From an uncultured Gammaproteobacteria bacterium (GTDB lineage: Bacteria > Patescibacteriota > Patescibacteriia > SG8-24), in NCBI GenBank assembly GCA_964486995.1, contig CAZAOV010000001.1, forward strand, positions 15,697 to 79,696: 64,000 bases of DNA, written 5' to 3'. Each line of letters begins with the position of its first letter. Within the stretch, counting starts at the first letter, position 1. The translations under genes and the position numbers were made by a program. Below the pieces are notes generated by a model, which was not told the DNA's origin, searched no databases, and was given only the letters and a program-made list of their open reading frames with translations. Positions 17,221-52,200 of the stretch are shown in pieces.

Positions 17221-18849
17221 TCAATTTAAACCTCTTTCCATTAGATATGCAATGACCTGTTCGGCGCATTCTTCCGGAGAATATTCTACGGTGTTCAGAA
17301 TCACCTCGGCGTTTTCGGAACGTTCGAACGGGTCATCTACGCCGGTGAAGTTCTTAAGCTGACCCAGTTCGGCTTTACGGTACAGCCCTTTCATGTCGCG
17401 CTGTTTGCAGACTTCTATAGGAGTATCTACCAGCACCTCGATGTAAGTTCCGGTTTTGCTTATTAGTTCTCGGTTCTTATCGCGGGTGGCCGCATACGGC
17501 GCAATCGTCGCGCAGATAGCGATGCCGCCGTGTTTGGTGATTTCGTTGGCGACGAAGCCGATACGTAAAATATTTGTATCGCGGTCCTCGCGGGAGAAGC
17601 CCAGGCCTTGCGATAGGTTGTTGCGAATTACGTCTCCGTCCAACACGGTAATCTCCCTATCCTGCACCTCACGCAGCTTGTCGTGCAGGATTTTTGCTAT
17701 CGTTGATTTACCGGAGCAAGACAGGCCAGTCATAAAAATCGTGAAACCGCGACGATTATCGCGCTGTACTGCTTTGCGCAATCCGGAAACTATTTCTGGA
17801 AAGGACAGCCACTCCGGCACATCTTCGCCCGCACGAATCATGCGACGCAGTTCTGTTCCGGAAATTTTTTCCGGTTGGTGGTGTTCCTCCAGCTCATGCG
17901 TGTAGAAGTATTTTTTCTCGGACGGCACGTAAGCAATTTCCTTTGGTGAGACAATCTCGATGCCAATTTCGTCCGCGTGTTCCCGCGCCAACTCCTGTGC
18001 ATCGTACGATCCGTAGTAATTCCCGCCCGGATCAGCGTGCCCGCGGCCGACGATGAAATGCGTACAGCCGTAGTTCTTTCTGATCTGCGCGTGCCACACC
18101 GCCTCGCGCGGACCGGCCATTCGCATCGCGAGCGGCAACAGGCTCAGCTTGGCGAAGTCGCTCATATAATTCTCTGCTACCTTGCGATAACAGCGCACAC
18201 GTGTGACATGATCGATATCCCCTGGCTTTGTCTCCCCTATGGTCGGATGGATTAGCACCTTGGCGTTGTGTTCCTCGGCCCCGCGACGCATCAGTTCGTA
18301 ATGAGCGCGATGAATCGGGTTGCGGGTCTGGAATCCGATTACCTTTTCCCAGCCGTTTTCGGCGAACCATTGTTTTAGCTCGTCTGGTCTATGGCGCAAG
18401 TCGATGAAACTTCCGTTACGGCCTTTTAGCTTCACGTCAGTGACTGGACCACCCAGATATACTCGACCGACATCGTCAAACAATTTCCGTACGCCGGCGT
18501 GATTTTTGTCTGTAGTCTGATAAATTTTTTCAGCCTCACGCAACTTGTCTGGTATGTATGTTGAAGTCACGTTCATGACTGCCGCCGGATTACCGTACTT
18601 GTCGCATAGTACGATTTCTTCGCCGACTTCGATATTGGCATTATTCACATCTAGGGCTATCGGCATTGACCACAATGCACCATCGGCTAATCGCATAATA
18701 TCTAAAACCGACTCGTAGTCCGCCTGATTCATAAATCCAGTGAGCGGTGCGAACGAGCCATCTAGTAACAGCTCCAAATCACAAAGCTGGCGGTCCGTTA
18801 GGTTGACCCGTCTCAACGTGGCAATTTTGTCTCTGATATTTTGCATCAT
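17221..18849 (-). CDS. sat-cysC: Bifunctional sulfate adenylyltransferase (ATP sulfurylase) / adenylylsulfate kinase, i.e. PAPS synthase
   Basis: N-terminal ATP-sulfurylase motifs QTRNPIHRAHYEL and HxxG. C-terminal APS kinase P-loop GFTIFMTGLSCSGKSTIAKIL. 542 aa. Confidence 0.9.
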   Translation of the reverse strand: MMQNIRDKIATLRRVNLTDRQLCDLELLLDGSFAPLTGFMNQADYESVLDIMRLADGALWSMPIALDVNNANIEVGEEIVLCDKYGNPAAVMNVTSTYIPDKLREAEKIYQTTDKNHAGVRKLFDDVGRVYLGGPVTDVKLKGRNGSFIDLRHRPDELKQWFAENGWEKVIGFQTRNPIHRAHYELMRRGAEEHNAKVLIHPTIGETKPGDIDHVTRVRCYRKVAENYMSDFAKLSLLPLAMRMAGPREAVWHAQIRKNYGCTHFIVGRGHADPGGNYYGSYDAQELAREHADEIGIEIVSPKEIAYVPSEKKYFYTHELEEHHQPEKISGTELRRMIRAGEDVPEWLSFPEIVSGLRKAVQRDNRRGFTIFMTGLSCSGKSTIAKILHDKLREVQDREITVLDGDVIRNNLSQGLGFSREDRDTNILRIGFVANEITKHGGIAICATIAPYAATRDKNRELISKTGTYIEVLVDTPIEVCKQRDMKGLYRKAELGQLKNFTGVDDPFERSENAEVILNTVEYSPEECAEQVIAYLMERGLN

Positions 18850-25428: not shown

Positions 25429-26580
25429 ATGCAAATAATTTACGCAGCGCGGGACGCGCCAGAAACAATTACCAAGTCCATCTTTCTCGCCGGGCCGAGC
25501 CCACGAAAAGACGGGCAATACAACTGGCGACCGGATGCAATCAAAATCCTGGAGCAGCTGGGTTTTGATGGCACCGTGTTCATTCCGCTACCCGAAGACG
25601 GCGGCTGGCCACATTCGTACGACGAACAGGTCAACTGGGAAACGCGTCATCTGAATATGGCCGATGTGGTGGTGTTCTGGGTGCCGCGCGACCTTACAGA
25701 TCTGCCGGCCTTCACCACGAACGTGGAGTTCGGCATGTGGTACGACACCGGCAAAGCGGTGCTCGGGTACCCGCCGGACGCCAAAAAGATGAAATACCTC
25801 GACCATCACGCGCGTCGTGTCGGCACTCCGGTATGCGATACGCTCGAAATCACGCTACAGACTGCGGTGGACATGCTCGGGGATGGCGCTGCCCGCACAG
25901 ATGGCGAGCGTTTCGTGCCGCTGCACATCTGGCGGACTCCTCAGTTCCAGCAGTGGTACGCCGCGCAGACCACGGCTGGCAACCGACTCGACGGTGCGGA
26001 AGTGGTTTGGTCGTTTCGGCTGCAGCAAACCGGCAACGTTTTATTCTGGGCACTGCACGTGGACGTTCATATCGCCATTGAAAGTCGCAACAAGACTATC
26101 GAAATCGTTTTGTCGCGACCTGACCTGTCGGTCGTGGTGGCATACTACGACGACGAGGACACCGGCGACACCAAGGTGGTGTTGGTGCGCGAGTTCCGTT
26201 CGCCCGCTTCAACTAAGGATGGTTTCGTGCTGGAACTGCCGGGCGGTTCTAGCAAGAATCCAGAAAAAACACCGGCCGAGATAGCCATCGACGAATTCCA
26301 CGAAGAAACCGGCCTGAAGCTCGACCCAAAATATCTGACACCAGTCGAATCGCGCCAGCTTGCCGCTACCTTGTCGGCGCACCGCGCTCACGTGTTCACC
26401 TACCAACTGGACGACGATGAGTACCAGGCGCTACTCGAACAGACCAACCAAACACACGGTGAGTCGGACGATACCGAACTGACTTACCTAGAAATCCATT
26501 CGCTCGACGACATCCTCTACGGAGATGAAATCGAGCTGGACTGGTCCAATCTAGGAATGCTTTATCTGGCGATCGGCTAA
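25429..26580 (+). CDS. Fusion protein: N-terminal nucleoside 2-deoxyribosyltransferase/DNPH1-like (nucleotide N-glycosidase fold) domain plus C-terminal NUDIX hydrolase domain
   Basis: N-terminus: SIFLAGPSPRKDG...ADVVVFWVP...NVEFGMWYDTGKAVLGY (compare DNPH1/Rcl VYFCGSIRGG...ADVVVAEV...GVGYELGRAVALGK). C-terminus: Nudix box ELPGGSSKNPEKTPAEIAIDEFHEETGLKL. Confidence 0.6.
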   Translation: MQIIYAARDAPETITKSIFLAGPSPRKDGQYNWRPDAIKILEQLGFDGTVFIPLPEDGGWPHSYDEQVNWETRHLNMADVVVFWVPRDLTDLPAFTTNVEFGMWYDTGKAVLGYPPDAKKMKYLDHHARRVGTPVCDTLEITLQTAVDMLGDGAARTDGERFVPLHIWRTPQFQQWYAAQTTAGNRLDGAEVVWSFRLQQTGNVLFWALHVDVHIAIESRNKTIEIVLSRPDLSVVVAYYDDEDTGDTKVVLVREFRSPASTKDGFVLELPGGSSKNPEKTPAEIAIDEFHEETGLKLDPKYLTPVESRQLAATLSAHRAHVFTYQLDDDEYQALLEQTNQTHGESDDTELTYLEIHSLDDILYGDEIELDWSNLGMLYLAIG

Positions 26581-26998: not shown

Positions 26999-27616
26999 TT
27001 ACTTTATCCCCAGAATAGGTGCCTGGCACCTATTCTGGGGATAATTTTTTTCCTTCAAAATTTGGCGGCCAATTTCTATATGTTCAATATAATTTTGCAT
27101 CGCTTCATCCTCATTGTTTCCAAAATGACTCAATATCCAAAACCGATCGAGAAAACCTGGTTCCGGATCAAGTCCAACAATCTCTCTATATGACCCCCAA
27201 GGCCAATCAACCGAATGCTCAACAAAACCGTCTTTCACCGGATTCAGGGCGATATACCGACACACCTCTAAAAAATATCTTTCACTGTCTATGATTTTGC
27301 TATCGTATCTCCGCTGATACACCCTGCCCAAAAAGCCGTATTTCTCATTAAAATATTTTGCATAATCGCCGTTAAGCTTTTGCATACCAATGGACAAATT
27401 GCCTTTAGGCACGTAAAGACCCAAATGATTGTGGTTTCTCATTTGGCAATGCGAAAAACTTTTCCAGTCACAGCCTTCGCACACATCAGCTAGTATCGTA
27501 TTGAAAACGATTCTATCCTGATTATCTAAATAAATATCCCCCTTGCGGTTGCCACGGGTAGTTACATGCACCAACATGCCCTCAAATTGTATTCGCGGTT
27601 TTCTAGGCATCGCCAT
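26999..27616 (-). mobile_element. IS200/IS605-type Y1 (HUH) transposase, probably a REP-associated tyrosine transposase (RAYT)
   Basis: PRKPRIQFEGMLVHVTTRGNRKGDIY...HCQMRNHNHLGLY...RYFLEVCRYIALNPVKDGFV has the Y1_Tnp pattern. The gene is flanked by REP-like palindromes at 27004 and 27653. Its last 14 codons are read through the palindrome. Confidence 0.6.
27004..27044. repeat. REP-like palindrome, copy 2
   Basis: ttatccccagaataggtgcc|tggcacctattctggggataa. Overlaps the 3' end of the RAYT ORF. Confidence 0.85.
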
Positions 27617-27969: not shown

Positions 27970-28914
27970 TTACGGCTCAATCCTAGCATTTTTCTCCAGC
28001 TCTGTCAGGATAGCTTCCTTGTGTTCTTCGGCATACGGACCGACAAACAAAATCTCGGTCTCTTCAACCTCGCCGGTAAACAACTGCCACGTCACGCGAC
28101 TGAACACCGAATTCATCACCTGCCAGCCGTCGGCCGTGCGAATCAGACCCTTGGCACGCCAAATGTCGCGCGTGTTCATCATCTCCAGCACGGCCTGAAC
28201 CTTGGCTGGATCAAATACACCGTCCGCCGAATGAAAACTGAACGCCTGCATGTGCAGATGTTCGGCATGCTCCAGACCCTCCCCGATTTCATCCGCGGTT
28301 AGCCGCCGCACTGCCGACCCTTCGTCCAAGCCAATCACTGCCTCGACCGGAATCGAACCGTCATTGGTTTTGATGTTGGGCATGTTAGGATAATACTCGA
28401 AAACCAAATCCAATACGTCATCGAGCCGCCGGTCGTCAACCAGGCCAATCTTATTGATTACCGCGAAATCCACGTACTTGGTGTAAGACTGCCGCACTAT
28501 CGGCGGTTCCTCGAATCCACCGAAATTCACCGCGTCAATAACTTCGACCACGCTATCGATAATGATATTGTCGAATCGCTTCAGCTCCATCACGATTGGC
28601 GCTGGATGTGCCGTGCCAGCCGTTTCAATAATCACACGGTCCGGTTTCATCTCCAGAATCTTCTCCATCGCAACTTCTAGCGCACCTATAGCCGTACAGC
28701 ACAGGCAGCCGTTCATGATTTCCTCGGTCTCGATACTCGCTTCGCGCGCCAGCCGGCTGTCGACGTTCACGTCACCATACTCGTTCTTCAGCCAAATCAC
28801 CTGGTAGTCCTCGCTGGCGATTTGCTTGACTAGGCTCATGATGACGGTCGTCTTACCCGAACCTAGCTCCCCCATCACGATGTTGACTGGTGTTTTTCCG
28901 TTTTTCTGTGCCAT
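27970..28914 (-). CDS. CobW/COG0523 family G3E GTPase (putative metallochaperone)
   Basis: P-loop MGELGSGKTTVIMSL, metal-binding GCLCCT, and a C-terminal CobW_C-like region. Confidence 0.85.
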   Translation of the reverse strand: MAQKNGKTPVNIVMGELGSGKTTVIMSLVKQIASEDYQVIWLKNEYGDVNVDSRLAREASIETEEIMNGCLCCTAIGALEVAMEKILEMKPDRVIIETAGTAHPAPIVMELKRFDNIIIDSVVEVIDAVNFGGFEEPPIVRQSYTKYVDFAVINKIGLVDDRRLDDVLDLVFEYYPNMPNIKTNDGSIPVEAVIGLDEGSAVRRLTADEIGEGLEHAEHLHMQAFSFHSADGVFDPAKVQAVLEMMNTRDIWRAKGLIRTADGWQVMNSVFSRVTWQLFTGEVEETEILFVGPYAEEHKEAILTELEKNARIEP

Positions 28915-29007: not shown

Positions 29008-30897
29008 TCACTCGCCAAGCGGGTTGTAACCACCCGAAACCTCTTCTCCGTCCAGATACCCATCGCCGTCTGAATCCGGATTGTTCGGGTCGGTGCCCAA
29101 TTCAACTTCCCGCAAATCCGAAAGACCGTCCTCGTCGGTATCCAACTTATCTGCCGGCACCGCATCAGCCGGTCGTTTCGCGCCCGGATCAACGGCCGGA
29201 TTATCGATTCCCTCCAGCGACACCTCTTGCGACGTGGCCGTATTGGTGCCCTGCGCGAAATCATAACGATCGATGAACGAACTGACCTGCGGCACCCGCA
29301 TCTGGTACTCAAGACGATACTCGCCCAACTCTTCGTCGAGCGAATACCCGAACGACTTACCGGTATAGAGATCATTTGGAATATTCACTACAACGCGAGT
29401 GAACTCATCCGGATTTTCGAACGCGAATGGCGACATAATTTCCAAACCAAGCAATGCATTGAGAGAGGAAGGGTGCCGTCCGTTAATTTCATGATAGTAA
29501 TCCAAGGCATAGCGCAGGTCGCCGATAATACCGGCCTGGTCACGCATCATCTGGTCCTCTTCGGTCCGGCCGCTGGCGGCTTGTATGGCCTGGCCCCAGA
29601 GCAGATATTCTTCTGGCGCCTCCACCTTCACCGGCTGGTTGATATCCTGAAAGGTTAGCTCGGACATGACATCAATCTGCTTCTCATCGAGTGGCGGCAG
29701 CTCGCCCGGTTCGGTCGCCACCGACATCGACATCACGTAAGCGATGGGCAAGTAAGACTCGCGGTCCACGTATAGGTCCGAACGCACGGCATCGAGAATC
29801 TCTCCGATTTGTTCCGCATCAACGCTAAGATTATCGACCAAAGTAGTCCACCGATCTTTCAGAATGTAGAATCGTTCGACTTTCGGGAACAGCTGTTCGC
29901 GCTGATCGTACATGTCGTTCTGAATCAGAGTCAGGCCATCCGGGTCAACCGCCAGCCGAAACAACCATGCTTCACGCCCGAGCGGGTCGCTCGTTCGTTC
30001 TGGTTTGCCGGAAGTCATTACTCCCCTGGCCACCGCCCGCTTAAGCAGTAACTCGATTTCGGCCAGTGGATCCATGCGCCCACTTAAAAACTCATCCGCT
30101 TCCCCATTGCCGTTCAGCTCGTTCTTGTATTTGAACACTTCGATATCCGGCTGATCCGACTCTTCATCTGCACTGCTGGCTTTTATCCAGTTATTTTTTA
30201 GCGGTCCAAGAAAGGTGGAAATTATCGGCGGGATGGTGTCAGCACGCAAATAGACATCTTCATCAACCAACAGCGCCCGACCGGCAATTTCTGCACTTAA
30301 CCCCTCGGTTTCAAAACTGCCGCTCAGTGTTATCTCGCCTTGCGGGGAATCCATGTTGCGGGTCACATCCATGGACAGACTGAAGTCCGCATACAGATCG
30401 GACGGAACCGCACCAAGCGGATTCAGCGACTCTATTTTCTCCATCTGATTTTCCGCGTCATCCGACACAAAGGATAGGATCTTGGTATCTGGTTGGCGTT
30501 CAGTCGTCTTTAGACTAAACCTAGAACCAATCCGAGCCGTTTCTATCTGGTTCAGATTATTAAACGCGTCATTCAGTGTCGGCCGCGGAAAAAGAAGCGG
30601 CAGATTGATATAACCGCGATAGGCGGCAATAATCATGCCGCCAACAATCACCAGCAGCAGTACAGCAACAATCGCGACGATGAGCCCTAAACCGCGTTTC
30701 TTCTTGCCCGTCTGCCCTTTCATGTGTTCTCTGCTGGCAGCTAACACCGAACCGCCAGCCGGTGATGCCGGCGGAATTGTCTCATCAAAAGTCGGCGAAG
30801 CTTCGCCGGTCGGAATTGGCGAAGATGACGGCGTCGGCTGTGTTGCCGGCTCATCGCCCTCCGGCGGAAGAATATTGTCTAGCTGTGTGTCGTCCAT
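29008..30897 (-). CDS. Membrane-anchored extracytoplasmic protein with C-terminal thrombospondin type-3-like Ca-binding repeats
   Basis: Pro/Ser/Thr-rich N-terminus, a single TM (LGLIVAIVAVLLLVIVGGMIIAAY), and C-terminal DKLDTDEDGLSDLREVELGTDPNNPDSDGDGYLDGEEV. Confidence 0.5.
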   Translation of the reverse strand: MDDTQLDNILPPEGDEPATQPTPSSSPIPTGEASPTFDETIPPASPAGGSVLAASREHMKGQTGKKKRGLGLIVAIVAVLLLVIVGGMIIAAYRGYINLPLLFPRPTLNDAFNNLNQIETARIGSRFSLKTTERQPDTKILSFVSDDAENQMEKIESLNPLGAVPSDLYADFSLSMDVTRNMDSPQGEITLSGSFETEGLSAEIAGRALLVDEDVYLRADTIPPIISTFLGPLKNNWIKASSADEESDQPDIEVFKYKNELNGNGEADEFLSGRMDPLAEIELLLKRAVARGVMTSGKPERTSDPLGREAWLFRLAVDPDGLTLIQNDMYDQREQLFPKVERFYILKDRWTTLVDNLSVDAEQIGEILDAVRSDLYVDRESYLPIAYVMSMSVATEPGELPPLDEKQIDVMSELTFQDINQPVKVEAPEEYLLWGQAIQAASGRTEEDQMMRDQAGIIGDLRYALDYYHEINGRHPSSLNALLGLEIMSPFAFENPDEFTRVVVNIPNDLYTGKSFGYSLDEELGEYRLEYQMRVPQVSSFIDRYDFAQGTNTATSQEVSLEGIDNPAVDPGAKRPADAVPADKLDTDEDGLSDLREVELGTDPNNPDSDGDGYLDGEEVSGGYNPLGE

Positions 30898-31041
30898 AAT
30901 ATATAGTAGGTATGTTTGGTGTTATTTTACGTGTTATTAACTTAATCGCCAATTTAATTTGATAACACCCGCTTCTTCGGCTCCACTGCGGGGATGGGGT
31001 CTTGGCTCCAGGCGCGCACCCCAATAAACAAAAAAGAGACC

Positions 31042-31668
31042 TTAGAGGGCCTCTTGAGATCGTCTCTGGCGATAGACAAGCCATAGAATCACCGTCAAAA
31101 GATTCAACAACACCTGCGGCGGAGTCACAATCATCAGCCAGATATTATCGGTCGCAATGCCGTAAACGAGCCAGAATGTCGAGCCGGCCAAGAACACCGA
31201 CAGATAAAAAATATCTGTGTTGCCGGCACTGCGGTTGCGCCATATTTCCAGCGGTTGAGTGCCCACTGCGATAATCAATCCAACTCCGACAACCGTAAAA
31301 AACAATCCTTCGAAGTTATAGAATATCGCTAAGGCCTGCCCCGCAAGCGCGGACACCATGAATAAGATTAGCGGCCAGCCCAAGCTGCGGAACTTGCAAA
31401 TGCCGACCACCAACACTATCTGCGGAATAATCCGTATCGTCGCGGTTAGCATGGCGATACTGCCGATGTCCGCACCGAATGCCGTTTCGGCGACCATGAT
31501 CAGCACGAAGTACGTCGCCGTAAACCACGAAAGAGAATCGGCGTTCTTCCTAGACCAAACGCGATAGCTCTGTCGCGACGCACCGACGATACCGAACACG
31601 CGAATCGCCATCAGTATTACGAACGACACGGTCACCGCGTTCCAACCGAAGTTCTGCAGCTCAATCAT
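31042..31668 (-). CDS. SWEET/PQ-loop-like 7-TM membrane protein, paralog 1
   Basis: Two internal repeats, each a TM bundle followed by a PQ-loop-like motif (SRQSYRVWSRKNADSLS and GTQPLEIWRNRSAGNTD). The preferred start MIELQNFGW is at 31668; the ORF as called runs to 31680. Confidence 0.5.
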   Translation of the reverse strand: MIELQNFGWNAVTVSFVILMAIRVFGIVGASRQSYRVWSRKNADSLSWFTATYFVLIMVAETAFGADIGSIAMLTATIRIIPQIVLVVGICKFRSLGWPLILFMVSALAGQALAIFYNFEGLFFTVVGVGLIIAVGTQPLEIWRNRSAGNTDIFYLSVFLAGSTFWLVYGIATDNIWLMIVTPPQVLLNLLTVILWLVYRQRRSQEAL

Positions 31669-32308
31669 CTTCGGCCACATCTTTTTCGGCGGCCAGACGT
31701 TCCTCGCGCGGCAAGCGATCCCACAGAATAATGGTCACGATGACCACGATTCCGTAAGCCACATTAGAAAGCGGCACGATCAGGTCGCCGATAGCGAAGC
31801 CGTAGATTACCCACACCGTGCAGGTGAACAGCAGCGTCCACAGAAATCTCCGGTCAACCGAACCGCGTGTGCCCTCGCGCGCCATCTCCCATGGTTGCGT
31901 GGCGAGCGCCGCCACATTGCCGATACAAAACGCGAGATAGAACCACTCACGATACGGCAACATGAACATCGCCACCACCGCGCCGCAGAACAGCGCGGTC
32001 AACGCGTATTCATACCAACGAAAACCCTTGTACCACCACAGGCCAGCCAACGCGACCACTGTGAGAATCAACCACGGCAGGTCGCACACCAACGCCAGAC
32101 TGCCGATTTGGAATCCATAGATGATACCGGACGTCATGTACACCGCGGCATAGCTGAACAGAATCACCGACACCGAACGACCGGAGCGGCGCTGCCAGAT
32201 AGTGCGGGTCTGCTTGAACATGCCCCACACGCCCACTGCAGTGGTGACCGCGATGATGCCGAACGTGAGCGTGACCAGGTTCCAACCGAACTGTTCGATC
32301 TCAATCAT
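31661..32308 (-). CDS. SWEET/PQ-loop-like 7-TM membrane protein, paralog 2
   Basis: MIEIEQFGWN...FKQTRTIWQRRSGRSVS...ATQPWEMAREGTRGSVD. RBS ggagg. Overlaps paralog 1 by 8 nt (ATGATTGA). Confidence 0.5.
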   Translation of the reverse strand: MIEIEQFGWNLVTLTFGIIAVTTAVGVWGMFKQTRTIWQRRSGRSVSVILFSYAAVYMTSGIIYGFQIGSLALVCDLPWLILTVVALAGLWWYKGFRWYEYALTALFCGAVVAMFMLPYREWFYLAFCIGNVAALATQPWEMAREGTRGSVDRRFLWTLLFTCTVWVIYGFAIGDLIVPLSNVAYGIVVIVTIILWDRLPREERLAAEKDVAEDD

Positions 32309-32960
32309 CTTCGGCCTCCGTTTCCGCTATGCTAGACGCCCGTACGTGCGCCGGCGCTGGCGGCAGAACGTAGTACAGCACTACCGTGCCGATAACTACC
32401 GTCAGGAACGTCGGGTTCGAAATCGACAGCACCCAATTACCGATAGCAATCGAATACACCGACCAGAATGTCACACCAACCAAAATGGTCCACAGGAATT
32501 GTGCGCTGACCACGCCGCGATGCCCACGACGAAACATCTCCACCGGCTGCGGCACGAACGACAGAATCGCGCCCATCGCCACCACGAAATAAAACGTGTC
32601 CTTGACCGGAACCAGTGCCATCGCCACGATTCCGGCCAGAATCAATCCGGTTGCGACCCATTCCCAGGGCCGATAACCCTTATATTTCAGCAGGCCGATA
32701 CTGACCACCATCTGCAACACCGCACGAAAGCCCATGACGATAAGCGCCAGGCTCTTGATCTCGAGTCCATAGATAAAACCACACGCGAAAAACAACACTC
32801 CGTAGTTCATCATCAGCACCGAAACCGATTCGCCGGACCGCTCGCGCCAGATGGCGATACCCTGCTTAATGAGCCCCCAGAATCCCAGCAGGGCCGTGCA
32901 CATCGCACCGATGAAGCCAACCGTTACCAAATTCCAACCAAACTGCTGAAACTCAATCAT
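32301..32960 (-). CDS. SWEET/PQ-loop-like 7-TM membrane protein, paralog 3
   Basis: MIEFQQFGWN...IKQGIAIWRERSGESVS...VPQPVEMFRRGHRGVVS. RBS gggagagagga before the ATG at 32960; the ORF as called runs to 33065. Overlaps paralog 2 by 8 nt. Confidence 0.5.
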   Translation of the reverse strand: MIEFQQFGWNLVTVGFIGAMCTALLGFWGLIKQGIAIWRERSGESVSVLMMNYGVLFFACGFIYGLEIKSLALIVMGFRAVLQMVVSIGLLKYKGYRPWEWVATGLILAGIVAMALVPVKDTFYFVVAMGAILSFVPQPVEMFRRGHRGVVSAQFLWTILVGVTFWSVYSIAIGNWVLSISNPTFLTVVIGTVVLYYVLPPAPAHVRASSIAETEAEDD

Positions 32961-33122
32961 TCCTCTCTCCCTCTTATAAAGAACGCGGGTAAACCCGTTG
33001 GCAATTAATTTGGCATTTTTGCTTCCATCGGTCAATGCGACCCAATGCGCTTGACAGGTCCGCATCTGCTTGATAAAAATTCAATCTGACACAGTGTCAG
33101 TGCGACAGTTTAAGGAGGAAAG

Positions 33123-33584
33123 ATGCTTGGTCTTATCGTTTCGGCTTGCTACTTTCTTTATCTTGCCTTTATCGGCGGTGACATGAGCACGGAAGCGGCA
33201 TTCCTACAGGCTTCCGGGTTGCTGTACAGTTGGTACTGGGTGGTCAGCATCATCTTCGCGTTTGTTCTCGGCGTGTTCGCCTTGCTCATGATTCTCGGTG
33301 TCGGCGTGGCTGGCAGCGCTGGCGGAGGTTTAGCCTTCGGTGTGATTGGAGCGGCAGTCGGCGGAGTAGGCGGCATGACGGCCGGTGGTCTGCTCATGGC
33401 GCTCTCCTTGGCTGGATTCGTAGTCAGATGTGCCTTTCTGATCGGCGGTGCCTATCTCCTGATGACCGCCGGAAGCGCCGACATGGCATTCGCGGATTTC
33501 GAAATGTGGCGAATCGGTGTCGGCGCAGCGCTAATCTTTCTCGGCATCATTCTTCGCGATAGCAGCAGATCGTCGGACGACTAG
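33123..33584 (+). CDS. Small Gly/Ala-rich integral membrane protein, hypothetical
   Basis: RBS aaggagga; 3 to 4 TM helices; terminator immediately downstream. Confidence 0.45.
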   Translation: MLGLIVSACYFLYLAFIGGDMSTEAAFLQASGLLYSWYWVVSIIFAFVLGVFALLMILGVGVAGSAGGGLAFGVIGAAVGGVGGMTAGGLLMALSLAGFVVRCAFLIGGAYLLMTAGSADMAFADFEMWRIGVGAALIFLGIILRDSSRSSDD

Positions 33585-33849: not shown

Positions 33850-34230
33850 TCACCCAACCAACTCCCCTATCTTCTCCAAAACTTCGGCAAACGAAACCTG
33901 CGTCTTAATCATGTACAAATCCGCACCAGCCTCAGTCGCCCGGTCGATATCCTCTGGCTGCGACAACTTAGTCAACACAACCACCGGCACACCAAACGTC
34001 TCCTTAACGACCCGAATCAGTTCAAACCCATCATGCCCAGGTACCATCGGCTCCAACAATACCAAGTCCGGCCTCAACGAACCCAACATTCCATGTAATT
34101 CATCAACGCTAGTCGTGTAGTGCGGATCATAACCCGCGCGCTCCAGTTTATTCGCGTATATCCGAACCAAAAACTCGTCCTGATCAAATATGAGAATTTT
34201 ATTGCGCGGCAATTCGATTTCCATATACAC
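33850..34230 (-). CDS. Single-domain response regulator (CheY-like receiver)
   Basis: ILIFDQDE...DLVLLEPMVPGHDGFEL...VVVLTK: receiver Asp pocket, phospho-acceptor Asp, conserved Thr and Lys. Confidence 0.8.
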   Translation of the reverse strand: MYMEIELPRNKILIFDQDEFLVRIYANKLERAGYDPHYTTSVDELHGMLGSLRPDLVLLEPMVPGHDGFELIRVVKETFGVPVVVLTKLSQPEDIDRATEAGADLYMIKTQVSFAEVLEKIGELVG

Positions 34231-34692
34231 CTACATTATCTCAATAAACGGCGGCTCCTCGGCCGCGATATTCTGATCGCGCAAATCCAACGCCCGAATC
34301 AAGTCCGGCACGATTTTGAACAGGACATAATCATCATTACCGATATGCAGAATCGGTGGCCAAACATCTTTGAGGCCCGCACCGGCCGCAGCCACCGCAT
34401 CCAACCGCTCCTGACGCTCCTGTTCATCAGTCACTCGCTCGGCCCGACCGCGCATCTGCACATATATAGGCAAGGCGCTGCCGATACTTAATGAAACCAC
34501 CGGATTCTGCTCCAAATTCCTAACCTTGGAGGTGTTCTTCCGAGTGACAAAATAAACATTGAAGTCATCGTCAACCGCATACACCACAGTCGCGGCATGC
34601 GGCAAGCCATCCGAAGATACGGTCGCCAAAGCCGCCAACCGATTATTTTTCAAGCTATCCAACACCAACTTTTTCAGCTCTTGGTCCGCCAT
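34231..34692 (-). CDS. Pyridoxamine 5'-phosphate oxidase-like FMN-binding protein (general stress protein 26 family)
   Basis: LAALATVSSDGLPHAATVVYAVDDDFNVYFVTRKNTSKVRNLEQNPVVSLSI. Confidence 0.65.
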   Translation of the reverse strand: MADQELKKLVLDSLKNNRLAALATVSSDGLPHAATVVYAVDDDFNVYFVTRKNTSKVRNLEQNPVVSLSIGSALPIYVQMRGRAERVTDEQERQERLDAVAAAGAGLKDVWPPILHIGNDDYVLFKIVPDLIRALDLRDQNIAAEEPPFIEIM

Positions 34693-34693
34693 A

Positions 34694-35086
34694 TTATTTC
34701 TTCTTGCCCTTAAGTAATTCCTCCACCTTGTCTGAGATGCTTTTCAGACTGACGTCAGACTTAACCAGATAATCATTCGCGCCAAGATCTTCACAGCGCT
34801 TGATTTCTTCGGCTTGTCCCAAATTGGACAATATTAATACCGGAATATCGCGTGTATCTTTGTTCAGCTTCAGATTGCTTAACACTTGGAAGCCGCTCAT
34901 TACCGGCAGCATCAAATCAAGCAGGATTATATCCGGCGTGTCTTCGGCCGTCTTATCGAGCGCAGACTGACCATCCTTCGCCAAGGCCGTTTCATAACCC
35001 TCCTGGTCGAATTTCGAAGTCAGCGCCTTGGCCAAAAGCAAGTCATCCTCTACGATAAGCACCTTTTTAGCTTTTTTTGCAGGCAT
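34694..35086 (-). CDS. Single-domain response regulator (CheY-like receiver)
   Basis: KKVLIVEDDLLLAKAL...DIILLDLMLPVMSGFQVL...VLILSN...DYLVK. Confidence 0.8.
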   Translation of the reverse strand: MPAKKAKKVLIVEDDLLLAKALTSKFDQEGYETALAKDGQSALDKTAEDTPDIILLDLMLPVMSGFQVLSNLKLNKDTRDIPVLILSNLGQAEEIKRCEDLGANDYLVKSDVSLKSISDKVEELLKGKKK

Positions 35087-35124
35087 AGTCTCTTATATAA
35101 ATTATTCTAATTACATTATACAGG

Positions 35125-37422
35125 TTAATGGGCCTCTCCGTCTTGTGGTTCGTTGTGTTCAATCGGGAGAGTGATATTAAATTTCGATCCCTTGCCGACC
35201 TCAGACTCCAGCCAAACCCGACCGCCAGAAGACTGGATAACTGACTTAACGATATATAAGCCCAAGCCGTAGCCTTCCGTATCCAGCAATGCCACATTGT
35301 CACCGCGAAAAAACTTTCGAAAAACCCTATCCTGTTCCTCCGGCGGCACACCAATTCCCGTGTCCGTCACCCATACGGTAATTTCGCAAACGCTGCGTTC
35401 GCCGCAGACCATCACCGAACCGCCCTGCGGCGTGTACTTGATGGCGTTCGAAAGTAAATTATATAGAACGTTTCGTATCAGGCTGGCATCCACATATGCT
35501 TGACCTAGCTGGCAGGGCTCAAAATGCAGCTCCAGGCCTTTTTCCTTGGCCTCAAAAGACATGTCCTTAACCGCAGAGCGACATAGGGCGTCCATGTCAA
35601 CATGAGCCGGATGCGAAGAAATGCGACCGCTTTCGATTTGCGACACGTTCAGCAAATCATTAACGAGCTTGTTCATGCGCACTGTGGAGCGCTTAGCCAT
35701 GATGAGATATTCCCGCTGCTGTTCGGTGAGCTTGCTGATATCGGAGTCATAGAGCATCTCCAACATCCACTTAAGCGACGACAAAGGCGTTCGCAGCTGA
35801 TGTGACGCAATGGAAACAAATTCGGTCTTGGCACGATCGATGGCTCGTTCCCTGGTAATGTCGTGCATAACCGCCACCGCACCAAAAACCGAACCCTCAT
35901 CAACCAACGGTGCCGCCGTTACTGCCACCGGAACCATCTTACCATCGGCGGACAGCAGAGTTGTGCCGTCCGGCGCATGCGTAACGATACTCGACTCCAT
36001 GCATTCAACGATGAAATCATCGCTGGCTGTCTCATCATCCTCGTTCACGAAGCGAAAATGCTTCTTGTAGGTCTGTCCGGTGGTCTGACCGGATATTTTT
36101 CCGGCCATCACCTCTGCGACGGCGTTGCACATCAGAAGATTCCCCTCGCGATCCAAAACAAATACACCGTCGCCGATACTGCGTAGCATGGCCTGACTCT
36201 GTTCCCGCTCTCGCTCGGCGACGTCTTTTTCCTGTTGCGCCGTCTCGAGCGCACGCAACACATCTTCTCGTGATTCGACCAGTTCAACGTTGGCTTTTTC
36301 CAAGTCATCGGTTTTTTGAGACAGTTCCTTGCCCTGCGCTTCAATCACCGATATTTTTTCGCGTAACACGCTGATGTCATGGCAGACGAGCACGAAAGCA
36401 TAACTCTTGCCCAGAGACACGCGGCTCGCTGACAGCGAAATCGGAATGTGACGAACGCCACCGGTGCGTAAATATGTTTCGGGTATGGATAATTTAATTC
36501 TCCCGCCCGAATCATCGTCCAGCAGGCGACCTATCACATCATGAGCGCACGGGAGAAATGTAGAAATCTGTTTTCCAGACAGCGCTGACACGGGTAACCC
36601 AACCAATTTGGCGGTTTGCTGATTGGCGACCGAGATACGACGTTCGGAATTCACGATTATCAAAGCTTCGCCCATGGTATCGATGATATCAGCCGCCACC
36701 GATGACGGAGAAATCTCGAACAGTCTGTATCGCAGCATGGCATACGTGATAGTCGCGACATACAGCGTGGTGGCTATATTCGTGTAAGGACCGATCGAAA
36801 CTTCATACCAAGGCAAGTAGTTGCTGATTGCCGAAATCACGCCGATGCAAATACCGATAAAAATCAGTTTGCGTTGTTTCTGCACCAAACCAGTCGAATT
36901 CATTACCCCAAATGCGAGCAAGGTGGTTGCATAAGCCATGGTGCCGACCCACAGAACCAAGTAATACGGGTGTAGCGGACCCGGAACAGGCATGTAAGCA
37001 AAATGAAACCCACTCTCACTCATGGTCTCAATGATGAGCGGCGTAAAAAAAGTGACGACAAAGAATTCCATCACCATTATGAGCAGTAGTAGGGAGATTT
37101 GGTGTCGACTCTTCTCCAGCTCCAACATGACAATAACGAAGTACAGCAGAAACAGAGCGCCCAAGGTGGCCGCCATCAATTGAATCCGTAACCAGAACAA
37201 CATGACGTTTGGATCTACTGTTGTGGTAAAGACCGTATAGGGTACCGCCCAAGCCGCTACACTAATCGAAAACAAGAAGAACGCGACGTTCTTCTTGCCA
37301 TAAATATTTCTATTTAACACGACTAAACTCGCCGCAAATGCTGCGGTTGCATTAATCAGACCGGACCAGAAAAAGAAGTTCAGTGGATCAAATTGATAAT
37401 TTGCGGGGTTTAGAATCCCCAT
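35125..37422 (-). CDS. Sensor histidine kinase: polytopic membrane N-terminus, PAS domain(s), HisKA and HATPase_c
   Basis: About 7 N-terminal TM helices, a coiled-coil, H-box SHQLRTPLSSLKWMLEM, N-box NLLSNAIKYT, and G-boxes DTGIGVP and GYGLGL. Confidence 0.85.
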   Translation of the reverse strand: MGILNPANYQFDPLNFFFWSGLINATAAFAASLVVLNRNIYGKKNVAFFLFSISVAAWAVPYTVFTTTVDPNVMLFWLRIQLMAATLGALFLLYFVIVMLELEKSRHQISLLLLIMVMEFFVVTFFTPLIIETMSESGFHFAYMPVPGPLHPYYLVLWVGTMAYATTLLAFGVMNSTGLVQKQRKLIFIGICIGVISAISNYLPWYEVSIGPYTNIATTLYVATITYAMLRYRLFEISPSSVAADIIDTMGEALIIVNSERRISVANQQTAKLVGLPVSALSGKQISTFLPCAHDVIGRLLDDDSGGRIKLSIPETYLRTGGVRHIPISLSASRVSLGKSYAFVLVCHDISVLREKISVIEAQGKELSQKTDDLEKANVELVESREDVLRALETAQQEKDVAEREREQSQAMLRSIGDGVFVLDREGNLLMCNAVAEVMAGKISGQTTGQTYKKHFRFVNEDDETASDDFIVECMESSIVTHAPDGTTLLSADGKMVPVAVTAAPLVDEGSVFGAVAVMHDITRERAIDRAKTEFVSIASHQLRTPLSSLKWMLEMLYDSDISKLTEQQREYLIMAKRSTVRMNKLVNDLLNVSQIESGRISSHPAHVDMDALCRSAVKDMSFEAKEKGLELHFEPCQLGQAYVDASLIRNVLYNLLSNAIKYTPQGGSVMVCGERSVCEITVWVTDTGIGVPPEEQDRVFRKFFRGDNVALLDTEGYGLGLYIVKSVIQSSGGRVWLESEVGKGSKFNITLPIEHNEPQDGEAH

Positions 37423-46211: not shown

Positions 46212-48200
46212 TTGTCTATGCAAACCAATACCATGCGTCACTCATATCAAATCATTGCGGCTGCAGCAGTAGTCGTGCTTATGTTCTTCTGGATGCCGAA
46301 CGCATATGCGCAGGTACCGGAATTTACCGATGAGCCATTTGACGCAACTGGCCTGTGCGTCGATGAGGGCTATGAAAGATACGAGACGCCCATCGAGTGC
46401 GAAGAGCGGTGCGATAATTGTGTCTTGGACGAAGACCAATGCTGGAGCTGTCAGAGTCAGCCCGAACCGGAAACAACGCCTGGTCTCTGGAAACGGTTCA
46501 CCAACTGGGTCGGCAGTTTTTTCAGCAGGGTCGTACAGTTCATTACCGGCAACGCACCGACCGAAGAACCGGATCCGAACCGTTCTGAACTAAACATTGC
46601 CTGGCGCACGGCTTCTGCGGCAGGCAAGAGCGTGCTCGGCTATCATCGCGGCGAGGGTCGCGGCAATGAAGAAGCCATAAACCAGCAAATCAAAGATGCC
46701 CTTGCTAATGCCGACTCCATACCGGACTTGCTGAAACTGCGCACTATTTTCATGATCTATTGTCAGGACAAGCACAACCAAAATTACAAATCCCAAGCCG
46801 CCTGCATGAATGATTTTATGGATGAATTTCGTAAGCGCGGCGATGTCCTAAAGGAACGGCTGTTGGCACAAATCGATTCCAGTGACGGCAGTGCCAAAAC
46901 GTACAAGAGGATTGTTGGCCTGCGCTCAATCCTAATGGCCGGCACGAACGCGAGCGGCGAGGGGTATTGGTTTTCGACCGACAATATCAAGAAGGTCATG
47001 GAAGCGTTGAAGGGCAAGATGAAGGAGTGGCTACAGGCAGCGCTAGTGCACAACGCTTCGCTCGAGAACATCCATACTTGGTATTACTTTGCCCAAGCTT
47101 ACACTAAGGCTGTCGTAAAGGAAGGCGACTCACCCGGCTCCGGCCTCATGGAAGGGTCTAATCCTTCGTTGTTGGTGCGGTATCGAGCGCGACGACTGGC
47201 CCTGCAAGAAATGATTAAGATCGACATCTGCAATCCCGACCCGGAGAAGCTCAAGAAGTTCCAGGAGCTGTTGAGCCAGCCGCCCGGCTGCAGAAAAATT
47301 CTCGGCAGTACGGTTGCCTGCGCTGATATAATGTCCGGCAAGCTTGAAGCGGCGTACGCTTATCTCTACGACATGGACGAAGGAGACGAAGCCAACGACA
47401 TGCCGCAGAACAAGGCGTCGGAACCGATTAAATGCGATAAGCAAAGCACAACGACCACCGCTGATACTTCCGACGATGAGCCCTTAGCCGTTCCAACCCC
47501 GCCGACCGAGGAGAGCGGTGATGATGTCGGCGCTTACGAGAGAGAGACACAAGCAACTGACTCGGACGGTAACCCGACACAAGGTGACCCACCGCCGGTC
47601 GGCGCCGACACGGAGGAAGGCACCGAACATACCGGGGCGGATTCAGGTGCTGCCTCCGGCAATCCCGAACCCGATTCAACCGAACCGCCCGGCGACACGG
47701 AATCCGACTCGACCCCCGCTTCCGGCGATTCCACCGATTCGACAGATGAACCAACCGAACCAAACGAGACCGATGACCCGACAGTCGAGCCGAACGGTAC
47801 GGGCACGCCTGACCCCTGCGAACTGCCTGAAAACCTTGATTCGCCCGAATGCATTACGGCCGGCGAACCGAACCCGGAGGAACCAACCGCGACTCCAGTC
47901 GTTCCGCCAGACCCAGAAGAACCCTACTCCATGTGCGATGTCGTCATAATCTCTGACCCGATCGTCGGCTGGGACTTCTATACCCAAGACTGCAATGCCG
48001 CCCGAGAAGACGTGATATTCGCCTTCACTTCATGTGGCTGGCAACCCCCTCTGGTCGTGGCCGACGATTCCGGCCCGGAAATCATGTGCTACGAAACGGC
48101 CGGCGGATTCATAGATTATCAATCTATAATTCCGTGCCATCCGATCCCCTGGCCAGACGAGCCCGTCGTTCAGTGTGTCGAGGAACACCTGATGATGTAA
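46212..48200 (+). CDS. Secreted Cys-rich protein with a long acidic Pro/Thr/Asp/Glu-rich low-complexity segment
   Basis: Signal peptide (AAVVVLMFFWMPNAYA); Cys clusters at both ends; a DSTEP/DSTD-type low-complexity stretch at 47500..47900. Confidence 0.5.
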   Translation: MSMQTNTMRHSYQIIAAAAVVVLMFFWMPNAYAQVPEFTDEPFDATGLCVDEGYERYETPIECEERCDNCVLDEDQCWSCQSQPEPETTPGLWKRFTNWVGSFFSRVVQFITGNAPTEEPDPNRSELNIAWRTASAAGKSVLGYHRGEGRGNEEAINQQIKDALANADSIPDLLKLRTIFMIYCQDKHNQNYKSQAACMNDFMDEFRKRGDVLKERLLAQIDSSDGSAKTYKRIVGLRSILMAGTNASGEGYWFSTDNIKKVMEALKGKMKEWLQAALVHNASLENIHTWYYFAQAYTKAVVKEGDSPGSGLMEGSNPSLLVRYRARRLALQEMIKIDICNPDPEKLKKFQELLSQPPGCRKILGSTVACADIMSGKLEAAYAYLYDMDEGDEANDMPQNKASEPIKCDKQSTTTTADTSDDEPLAVPTPPTEESGDDVGAYERETQATDSDGNPTQGDPPPVGADTEEGTEHTGADSGAASGNPEPDSTEPPGDTESDSTPASGDSTDSTDEPTEPNETDDPTVEPNGTGTPDPCELPENLDSPECITAGEPNPEEPTATPVVPPDPEEPYSMCDVVIISDPIVGWDFYTQDCNAAREDVIFAFTSCGWQPPLVVADDSGPEIMCYETAGGFIDYQSIIPCHPIPWPDEPVVQCVEEHLMM

Positions 48201-49250: not shown

Positions 49251-52200
49251 TCAGACTCTCACCTCGAACAAACCGTTCGGTACTTTGCCGCCACCGGCAT
49301 CAGTATAGACAAACGGACTGCGCGAGCCCCCACCGCGAAGTGTGACCACATCGCTTAATTTGTCAGAAACAGTCTCATCCTTGGAATGTGCGTTCACGCC
49401 CATTTTTTGCGCTTTTTTCTGCACAAAATTACCCATGGCTTCTTTTATCTTCGGATGCGAATTGCTGCTGTAAACGCGTTCCATAAACAGCGCCGGTTCG
49501 CCAGCGTCGTTTTCCAACATACGCACCACGGCTCGCGCCAAGATGTTCTTGTCCTCATCGTACATTTGAATAATCTTCACGCCCGGGTCGCTCAAATATG
49601 ACATCAACCCGACGTTCATCCCCATGGAACTTTTATAGCTCTGGCATGACGGCACCGGTTTCTCGCCAATCAACGCATGCACTGACACATCAACCTCGTC
49701 GGTCAAGATCAGCTTGGACTTAGAAATCCGTTCACCGCCAAACATGCTTTGATGCGCATTATGCAACAAATGTTCGATGCGTTCCAAATCCTGCGCAAAG
49801 TCAGGATTCTCGTCGTCGAATACGTCATGCATATCGCGGAAAACAACATCGAGCGGCAGGCGTTTCTTTTTGTCGTCAAACGCCAGTGATTTTGTTTCCA
49901 CGCCCTCCAGAGAGATGCGTCGCAACCTCGCGAGGTAAATCTGCGCCCGAGTTCTCTTGATTTCCGGGTTGTTCCCCGCCAGGTGTTCATTCACTTTTTG
50001 CTGCAATTCGTGGAACTCCGCTTTCTCTTCTTCCGGAACATCTTCGTATTTCAACCCTTTCTTCCTGGCCTTCTTTACGGCTTTGAAACGCGCTTTAAGC
50101 TCCTTTTGTCGCGCGGTCCACTCTTTGATTGGCTCGGTCAGGCGCTCGTATTTGGCTTTTAGAACTTCGTCATCGGGCGGAATTTCGTTCACATCAATAT
50201 GATGATCGGCCATCGCCTGAGACAGAATGTCGCGCACGCTGCTATGAACATCCTTGATGTCATAGCCGAGTGCCTCATCAAAACCAGCTTCATCATGTTC
50301 GAGCCAGGCACGATACTGTTCGGCCGACAGCTCGGTCGGCAACAACCCTTCTTGCCTGAGCCGATTCAATCGGCCCTCAGCCTGCTGTTCGTTCTCCGGC
50401 GATCCGCCCTCGCCCCACGCCCGCCAATCCTCATAGTCACCGGCCACCACATGTTCAATGAACTGCCTGAACGCATCTTCCATGTCGGCCCGTTTCCGAC
50501 AGGTTTGCCGATAATAAATCGACAATGCCGCAATCGCCTCACCGGTCAGGCCCTCAAACCGCACCTCGTTCTCCGACTTCAGCTCGAAAATATTCTGCAT
50601 GTGTTCGCTGATACGACCCATGAGTTTGTCGCGCAACTCTGACCAATCACCCTGCGCCAAATCATATTCTAAACCTTCATCCAGCTGATTATGCGCCACA
50701 AACTCCAGCATCTCTACCGCCTCCTTGCGCTGAGCCGATGACAAAGCAAATATCGCCGGAGCATTATCCTTAGCAAGCGGCATGACATCTAATATCGCCA
50801 CGCGATTCATCATATCCATGAATTGCTCGGGCGGATAAGCCTCTGACGGTTTCAACTGCTTGCCCTTTCGCTGCTGCTGAACCTTGGCAATGACCTCCAG
50901 CTCTTTGCGGTGCAGTTCATAGAACGCTTTACCCGATGCTATTTCCAGCATGGCATCATAATAGTCCTGTTCCAGCTCATCGGCCTGCTCGATGTGGTGA
51001 TAGGGATTTATTTCCGCCAGCTTATTTGTCACCTCGGCCGACAAATTAAGTTTGTGATAATACTGCCCGTATCGATTACCGGAAAACGCCACGCTCCGCG
51101 CTCTGGCCAAATAAAGTTTTTCTAATTCCTCATCTGGAACTTGTTCTCTGATATCCCTAAATTCCCGACTGGTATCAGTGAGCACCGCCGGATTCACCAC
51201 CGCATATTCAGCGATGTTCTCGCGCATCAAATCCTGCATTTCTAAATCATCCATGCCGGCGACACCTGCCTCGAAGACATAAAATTTATTCGCCTGACTC
51301 TCTTCGGTTATGGAATCACGCACCTCGTCAATCCATCGCAGACGTTTGCGCTCATGCTGCTCGGACAGCGACTCCTCGAGGCGCTCTTTTTTAATATCAT
51401 CAATTTTCTGCAGTGCCGCGCGCAAGTCATCCCGTAGTGTCTTTTTTTCGCTCATGGATACCAACTTGCTTTTCAGGCGGTCACGCAAGTATCTCACATT
51501 CTGCTCCTGTCTTTTTAGCCCCTCCTGCCACCATTCGAGGTGATTCTTGAAATCACTTTCCACCCCATGCAACTGCCTTAGCAGCTTTCCGTAGTAACGA
51601 GTTTGACCAGTTTCCGCCAGCCGTTCCATGAACTGCCGTCGCAGTCCAGGCAGCGCAATCATCTCTCTCATTATGCTTTCACTATCTAAAAAATCTTCGA
51701 TATCGACAGACCGAATTCGCTCTAACATGAGTCCGATGGTTTCTCGAGCTCCGATTAGCTCAATAACGGCTCTCAGTTTGTAAGCCAGGTCTGTTGCCGC
51801 CTCGAAAGCGCCGGGCTGTTCCAGCAAGACTCGTTTTATTTGTTCCTGATAGGGTTTAGCCGCTTCGCTCCCGATGAAATACTCAATAAAATTTAAATCA
51901 ACGGGAATCGTCAGCTGCCGCTCAAAAAAATCTTCTCGCTCCTGTTTGCTGTACACCTTTTTGAATGCCAAGCTGCCAAACAGGTGAGGCGACGCCTCGA
52001 TTGTCCGCCTAGCGGTGACCTGCAGGGTGTCACTGCTGATATCGAAAGTTTCACCGGATTTTTCTTTCTGACGCAGTTGCTTTGTCAGGCGCGGATAGTG
52101 TTCAAGAAAATATGACGCGTCTTTTTGCATTTCCTCAACCAGCCGGTCAGCCGGAACAATATCGTGTTGAAGCGCATATTCGATGTTATACATCCATAGC

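Follow-up and report, generated by a model that had tools for sequence, protein, structure and literature searches.

The bacterial SemiSWEETs (PF03083/PF04193, NF037968; structures 4rng, 4qnc, 4x5m and 4qnd) are proteins of about 90 amino acids (aa) which must dimerise, and the eukaryotic SWEETs, represented here by OsSWEET2b (5ctg) and AtSWEET13 (5xpd), carry two three-helix repeats in one chain. In AtSWEET1 the substitutions N73A, N192A and W176A each abolish glucose transport, as does mutation of the gate prolines P23, P43, P145 and P162 (PMC5742349). Seven-helix proteins with the MtN3 motif have also been reported from bacteria; Jia et al. (2018) described 20 of them in UniProt, falling into three clusters and including, e.g., PaSWEET of Pseudoalteromonas, and proposed that they originated by duplication and fusion (PMC5972207). 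In this work we analysed three consecutive minus-strand genes, named C, B and A in their order on that strand, in a stretch of 64,000 nucleotides (nt) of contig CAZAOV010000001.1 (assembly GCA_964486995.1, positions 15,697 to 79,696), hereafter called the window. We consider it probable that these genes form one operon encoding three diverged paralogs of a seven-transmembrane (7-TM) SWEET/SemiSWEET family specific to the candidate phyla radiation (CPR), and that the products are facilitators of small polar solutes.

Compared with the SemiSWEETs, the window proteins have two repeats and a linker helix fused into one chain of about 210 aa, and each half aligns to a whole SemiSWEET protomer (E-values of 2e-11 for the C-terminal and 5e-8 for the N-terminal half). 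Shared features are the motif running from a glutamine through (K/R)xKSxxxVS, the pocket tryptophan and the asparagine of the second repeat, and in the structure model the C-terminal bundle superposes on SemiSWEETs at 1.1-1.7 Å (5uhs, 4qnc). Unlike in SemiSWEETs, the hinge proline of the PQ motif has been lost from repeat 1, repeat 2 reads QP and not PQ, and the N-terminal ExxxFGWNxxT segment of the window family has no counterpart. With the eukaryotic SWEETs 5ctg and 5xpd the identity is only 11-18%, and both the proline tetrad and the first asparagine of the functional pair are missing. By sequence the halves resemble bacterial SemiSWEETs more closely than the halves of SWEETs, which may point to a separate fusion. 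Like the proteins of Jia et al. (2018) the CPR proteins are bacterial, have seven helices and often show only one repeat recognised by the Pfam model MtN3_slv; neither CPR members nor tandem arrays were described in that set. The PQ-loop/LCT transporters (cystinosin, 8dyp and 7zk1; PQLC2/Ypq), which are eukaryotic and lysosomal or vacuolar, showed no sequence relationship in profile searches.

Gene structure of the three-gene unit

Gene C (32301-32960, minus strand) encodes 219 aa from a start at MIEFQQFGWN and is the first gene of the unit, gene B (31661-32308, minus strand) follows with 215 aa, and gene A (31042-31668, minus strand), the third and most diverged, encodes 208 aa from MIELQNFGWN. 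The longest open reading frames (ORFs) reach further upstream in two cases, to 33065 for gene C and 12 nt beyond the MIELQNFGWN start for gene A. A first-pass annotation of this DNA had recognised three consecutive minus-strand genes of about 210 aa with a common N-terminus, which agrees with what we find, the consensus for C, B and A being MIExxxFGWN. Identity between the paralogs is about 40% for B and C and 27-31% for A against either of the others. When scored against the wider-family profile each protein reaches E-values of 1e-60 to 1e-75 (243 bits for B), and their kinship is therefore far beyond chance.

Both junctions consist of the identical octamer ATGATTGA, read from the sequence at 32301-32308 (C/B) and 31661-31668 (B/A) on the minus strand. 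It accommodates the start codon (ATG) of the following gene together with the stop codon (TGA) of the preceding one, and its context is GAAG-ATGATTGA-G. The equal 8-nt overlap noted earlier is thereby upheld. It should be noted that the T/C ambiguity then allowed within the octamer does not occur in the window, where both copies are ATGATTGA; variation is found among relatives, in the form of ATGGTTGA.

Signals for the expression of a single unit were found at both ends. A Shine-Dalgarno-like sequence, GGGAGAGAGGA (32961-32971, minus strand), abuts the ATG of gene C, and a terminator-like hairpin of eight pairs followed by a T-run (31024-31055, minus strand), called by a scan for the simple intrinsic-terminator consensus only, overlaps the stop of gene A and closes the unit. 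A consensus scan of the minus strand upstream of gene C found no sigma-70-like promoter. Gene B has a GGAGG 7 nt ahead of its ATG. Inspection of the B/A junction showed nothing ahead of gene A that is clearly a Shine-Dalgarno sequence, so that this gene is probably translated by termination-reinitiation. On the opposite strand an ORF of 268 aa (32202-33008, plus strand) lies antisense to genes C and B, and similar antisense ORFs are present at two related loci (L005 and L007); it is taken to be a by-product of the codon bias of the coding strand and no gene.

Fold and superfamily assignment

Structures of C and A were modelled with AlphaFold2 on a small family alignment. The model of C (pLDDT 87.7, pTM 0.80) has seven helices at residues 11-40, 48-68, 71-93, 98-116, 120-145 (with a kink at the QP motif), 153-173 and 176-198, and the model of A (pLDDT 81.1, pTM 0.76) has the same seven. 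Hydropathy likewise gives about seven hydrophobic segments. Lysine and arginine in C are distributed 9 to 2 in favour of the loops after TM1, TM3, TM5 and TM7, which fits an N-terminus outside and a C-terminus inside, as in SWEETs. A 7-TM, 3+1+3 topology is thus supported by the models, in line with the arrangement that the first-pass annotation had proposed.

The best fold matches were SWEET2b, SWEET13, cystinosin and the KDEL receptor, and every significant match was either a 3+1+3 protein or a SemiSWEET protomer; for the model of A the top Foldseek match was OsSWEET2b (5ctg, E-value 4e-4). In Pfam, A scores 28.7 bits against MtN3_slv (PF03083, cutoff 23.7) and C 24.4 bits against PQ-loop (PF04193, cutoff 22), B reaching 15.7 bits, which is below the cutoff. 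The best NCBIfam match for all three was SemiSWEET_2, though under its own cutoff. A profile of the whole family (149 members) searched against the PDB retrieved SemiSWEET and SWEET chains only (4rng 2e-11, 4qnc 6e-9, 4x5m 1e-7, 5xpd 9e-7), and the N-terminal half, used by itself as a profile, reached SemiSWEETs too (4rng 5e-8, 4x5m 2e-7). When the two halves were compared with each other they aligned in register at the glutamine motif (hhalign probability 85%, E-value 6e-6). The SWEET/PQ-loop fold named in the first-pass annotation is accordingly seen in the fold matches, in the Pfam scores of A and C above the gathering score, and in the SemiSWEET profile matches of both halves. PnuC (PF04973), which had been named as a family to be checked, gave no match at E<=10 for C, B or A and none among the 149 members, and no PnuC chain appeared in the sequence or fold lists.

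With a repeat above the gathering score and two three-helix repeats joined by a linker helix, the proteins belong to the MtN3/PQ-loop superfamily (Pfam clan CL0141), and within it both repeats are nearest to SWEET/SemiSWEET profiles (TC 2.A.123). The most fitting description is that of fused double SemiSWEETs inside the SWEET/SemiSWEET superfamily. They are not canonical SWEETs of the eukaryotic type, because neither the asparagine pair nor the proline tetrad is present as such (see below).

Motifs and predicted pocket

The family signature comprises E3, G8, N10 and T13, which make up the ExxxFGWNxxT segment ahead of TM1, a glutamine (Q33) that is invariant in 149/149 members and has no proline before it, Y64-G65, and Q138-P139-x-E141 in TM5, in which the proline follows the glutamine in 100/149 members and E141 is present in 124/149. 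Repeats of the PQ-loop type had been proposed for these proteins, together with the peptides FKQTRTIWQRRSGRSVS and ATQPWEMAREGTRGSVD as examples, both of which we located in protein B. Two homologous repeats are indeed present, but neither has a true PQ motif: in C, B and A repeat 1 reads K/R-Q without proline and repeat 2 reads QP, with an additional P137 in C only. The hinge proline that the PQ motif of the SWEET/SemiSWEET family places in the first helix of each repeat is therefore missing from repeat 1 and stands after the glutamine in repeat 2.

The pocket tryptophan is retained. W166 is found in C, B and A and in 147/149 members, is aligned with the SemiSWEET pocket tryptophan and corresponds to W48 of LbSemiSWEET and W176 of AtSWEET1. 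The HMMER alignment to SemiSWEETs, which places W166 on W48, also places N182 on N64 of LbSemiSWEET; the repeat-1 columns 61 and 76 were set by sequence alignment with a one-residue loop offset and are predicted pocket columns. At these four positions C has G61, M76, W166 and N182, B has G61, D76, W166 and N182, and A has E61, A76, W166 and T182. The asparagine pair of TM3 and TM7 (N73 and N192 in AtSWEET1) is consequently not conserved as a pair, column 76 being M/D/A and column 182 N/N/T in C/B/A; family-wide, asparagine occupies column 76 in 82/149 members and column 182 in 55/149. Of the proline tetrad, TM1, TM2 and TM6 of all three proteins lack the proline and only the QP proline of TM5 is present.

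The differences between the paralogs are to a large degree kept within their orthogroups. Column 61 is G in the C and B types and E in the A type; column 76 is M in the C type (T or V in two C-type copies), D in the B type and A in the A type; column 131 is A, N, and L or T in the C, B and A types, respectively; and columns 162-163 are GV (GA in two C-type copies), TC and GS. D76 is conserved in 4/4 B-type orthologues and E61 in 3/3 A-type orthologues, the orthologues of B being P0005, P0006 and P0007. To judge from the alignments, these orthogroup-specific residues at predicted pocket columns look like functional divergence after duplication.

Distribution of the family

A search seeded with short words returned about 10 relatives among 5.8 billion clusters, a misleadingly low figure which was superseded by an exhaustive HMMER search. 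In the latter 870 representatives passed E<=1e-3, and tightening the cutoff left 416 (E<=1e-10) and 134 (E<=1e-30), which means at least 134 clusters at 50% identity with homologues of about 210 aa. The best 150 of the 870 matches were nearly all 200-240 aa long and aligned end to end. Among 149 members scanned with Pfam, MtN3_slv was found in 124 (E<=0.01) and PQ-loop in 32. The first-pass annotation had called fused SWEET-like proteins uncommon in bacteria; given this number of CPR clusters and the bacterial seven-helix MtN3 proteins already on record (PMC5972207), that rarity was overstated.

All named members come from metagenome-assembled genomes (MAGs) of Patescibacteria or Parcubacteria, and the nine loci identified in GTDB species genomes, by a search which used C-type alignment patterns and is thus biased toward close relatives, are all from the CPR (Patescibacteria, Saccharibacteria, Giovannonibacteria, Parcubacteria and Falkowbacteria). 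An earlier guess at a host-dependent lifestyle fits this lineage, as the relatives are all Patescibacteria. The source databases offer no annotation of the members beyond "hypothetical protein" and "uncharacterized protein with PQ loop repeat". Our literature search returned no paper mentioning both SemiSWEET and Patescibacteria, and none of the matches listed for the CPR together with SWEET contained the term "candidate phyla radiation". On the sequences collected so far, this is a 7-TM SWEET-like family specific to the CPR/Patescibacteria and normally present in a single copy.

The tandem array in relatives and selection on the copies

Running the family hidden Markov model over all loci showed a single copy in L008-L019, from the wider CPR, whereas tandem arrays of two to three copies were confined to the window and its close relatives L001-L005 and L007. 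L001 has three copies in the order C-B-A. L005 carries C and B, and L007 carries C and A plus a separate C-like copy. In L002-L004 a fourth type is followed by C and by the start of a third gene, and in L008-L011 C is found alone. The octamer ATG(A/G)TTGA, i.e., ATGATTGA or ATGGTTGA, is present at the junctions of adjacent copies in L001, L002-L004, L005 and L007, with one exception: in L003 (1032-1048) and L004 (959-975) the overlap measures 17 nt (ATGATCGAGCTGCGTGA), the original TGA having been lost by a T-to-C change. This variant indicates that the overlap is tolerated at variable length. The conservation of the junction octamer among relatives bears out the proposal of tandem duplication with a preserved 8-nt overlap, and from the sequence comparison the array is a tandem expansion, specific to this lineage, of a gene that normally occurs once, and the duplicated unit carried the overlapping stop and start with it.

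A rough neighbour-joining tree, which does not place the long A branch reliably, yielded A-, B- and C-type orthogroups. Comparison of the window with L001 gives a synonymous divergence (dS) of 0.76-1.04, which is near saturation, and a ratio of nonsynonymous to synonymous divergence (dN/dS) of 0.13 for C, 0.09 for B and 0.14 for A. These values of 0.09-0.14 reflect purifying selection, and C, B and A are therefore all functional genes.

Proposed function and alternative explanations

In the model which we favour, the three genes would be expressed as one operon defined by the ribosome-binding site before C, the 8-nt stop/start overlaps and the terminator after A. Each product consists of two SemiSWEET-like three-helix bundles joined by the inversion helix TM4, and since the two bundles are fused in one chain each protein should form its own translocation path. 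Most likely each would be a low-affinity facilitator (uniporter) of a small polar solute which works by SWEET-like alternating access. A sugar or sugar derivative is the default guess for this solute, a plausible one which we infer from family membership. The array itself would have arisen by tandem duplication of a single-copy gene in one clade of Patescibacteria; as the duplicated unit retained the overlapping stop and start, the copies would be co-translated, and they would later have fixed differing residues at the predicted pocket columns 61 (G/G/E in C/B/A), 76 and 182. Differences at such columns suggest different substrates, in keeping with the substrate diversification proposed in the first-pass annotation, rather than a simple effect of dosage.

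Several observations weigh against this model. The residues essential in AtSWEET1 are mostly not kept, and a counterpart exists for just one of the four gate prolines, shifted to the QP position. The acidic residues D76 of B and E61 of A would be unusual at the pocket of a facilitator of neutral sugars. The pocket columns themselves were assigned by alignment to SemiSWEET sequences with an offset of one residue in repeat 1, and a comparison of the neighbours of nine single-copy loci provided no recurrent partner and no clue to the substrate. For the transport of sugars or other small solutes suggested in the first-pass annotation this means that the SWEET/SemiSWEET superfamily stands, but with the AtSWEET1 asparagine pair and proline tetrad only partly present the sugar is a default assumption.

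The same acidic residues are the starting point of another explanation, in which the fold and superfamily are unchanged and the substrates are cationic or amine-bearing, such as amino acids, amino sugars, polyamines, nucleosides or vitamins, with transport perhaps coupled to protons as in cystinosin and PQLC2. The conservation of both carboxylates within their orthogroups would fit, as would the absence of the canonical first-repeat asparagine from C, B and A, the glutamate E141 beside the QP motif in most members, the PQ-loop match of C above the Pfam cutoff and of 32 of the 149 members, and the presence of cystinosin among the top fold matches. However, the profiles reach SemiSWEET and SWEET chains only, with no cystinosin, PQLC, MPC or PnuC even at E-values up to 1-10, and C and B retain the pocket tryptophan and second-repeat asparagine typical of SemiSWEETs; we regard this explanation as rather unlikely. 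Unlikely, to a slightly greater degree, is a bolder version of the facilitator model which would see here an independent prokaryotic fusion from SemiSWEET to SWEET with mechanics of its own (no hinge proline in repeat 1, QP-x-E in repeat 2 and a conserved extracellular ExxxFGWNxxT cap), triplicated into a co-translated set with charged pockets that would import different host-derived metabolites or hetero-oligomerise, and that would then be a main nutrient gate of these episymbionts.

The possibility that C, B and A are subunits of an obligatory hetero-oligomer, e.g., a heterotrimer, in which translational coupling sets a 1:1:1 ratio and A is regulatory or non-transporting, draws on the stop/start overlap strictly kept at every paralog junction examined, on the order C-B-A shared with L001, on the most degenerate predicted pocket being that of A, and on OsSWEET2b, which crystallises as a homotrimer with contacts through TM4, as cited from Tao (2015) in PMC5742349. 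An obligatory heterotrimer is nevertheless improbable because copy number and composition differ among close relatives (L002-L005, L007 and L008-L011) and the remaining family is single-copy, which implies that the protein works on its own. More improbable by far is that the proteins are no transporters of this type at all, being either a receptor or scaffold with seven TM helices and the PQ-loop fold, comparable to the KDEL receptor, or a vitamin transporter of the PnuC type. The KDEL receptor was among the best fold matches; the sequence searches gave no cystinosin, MPC, PnuC or KDELR chain. The reading which we prefer is that of three facilitators of small polar solutes, each with a translocation path of its own.

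Neighbourhood and the rest of the window

The gene order in the window matches that of the Patescibacteria MAG GCA_043804985.1 (L005). Close relatives have in common the order of a response regulator, a divergent glycine-rich membrane protein, the SWEET-like genes, a TSP3 protein and a CobW/COG0523 GTPase, followed beyond CobW by a radical S-adenosylmethionine protein and a cluster for the synthesis of 3'-phosphoadenosine 5'-phosphosulfate (PAPS) and a sulfated glycan. As this synteny is confined to close relatives it is read as inherited gene order, no functional link is inferred, and the CobW/TSP3 association was set aside as such a link for the same reason.

In the window the glycine-rich protein (153 aa, 33123-33584, plus strand) has several TM helices, is transcribed divergently from the operon, has no Pfam match and has homologues in the corresponding position in L005 (225-704) and L007 (677-1147). 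Directly downstream of the operon is a membrane-anchored secreted protein of 629 aa (29008-30897, minus strand) with a C-terminal bacterial TSP3 (calcium-binding) repeat, and further downstream on the same strand lies the CobW/COG0523 metallochaperone-type GTPase (27970-28914, minus strand). L005 and L007 share the order TSP3 then CobW, and in L008-L010 CobW comes after the single-copy gene. At 33850-37422 two stand-alone response-regulator receivers flank a PNPOx-like flavoprotein, adjoined by a histidine kinase with an N-terminal HisKA_7TM domain and PAS domains; a homologous receiver gene is located upstream of the array in L007.

A large surface-glycan cluster occupies 329-24358 and includes four glycosyltransferases (GTs) of family GT2, a GT11 (the fucosyltransferase family), a GT47/exostosin-like protein, two sulfotransferases, a fused ATP-sulfurylase/adenosine 5'-phosphosulfate (APS) kinase (17221-18849), a GDP-mannose 4,6-dehydratase, several epimerases and a Wzm/Wzt ATP-binding cassette (ABC) exporter. 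This gene content implies a sulfated and probably fucosylated polysaccharide in a CPR bacterium. The GC content drops to 35-39% at 8-12 kb, compared with about 50% in the rest of the window. PAPS synthase and sulfotransferase are close to the SWEET-like genes in L005 and L008 too. Between the cluster and CobW, the ORFs at 25429-26580 and 26999-27616 represent a nucleoside 2-deoxyribosyltransferase-like/NUDIX fusion with an IS200-type Y1 transposase nearby. Two long ORFs, at 49251-53528 (1425 aa) and 46212-48200 (662 aa), are without a Pfam match at E<=1e-5.

Conclusions

Nothing in these results overturns earlier work, as both fold and superfamily were known before, and so was the existence of some bacterial 7-TM members. 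What is new is a subfamily of 7-TM SWEET-like proteins specific to the CPR, with a triplet of translationally overlapped genes in one clade; the subfamily adds a prokaryotic example of the step from SemiSWEET to a 7-TM fusion that is usually discussed for eukaryotes only. The CPR/Patescibacteria have a minimal metabolism and few recognisable transporters, and the family bears on how these bacteria take up nutrients from their hosts. A CPR-wide 7-TM SWEET-like family is a testable candidate for the passive uptake of sugars or other small solutes, and one clade has expanded it to three diverged, overlapping copies.

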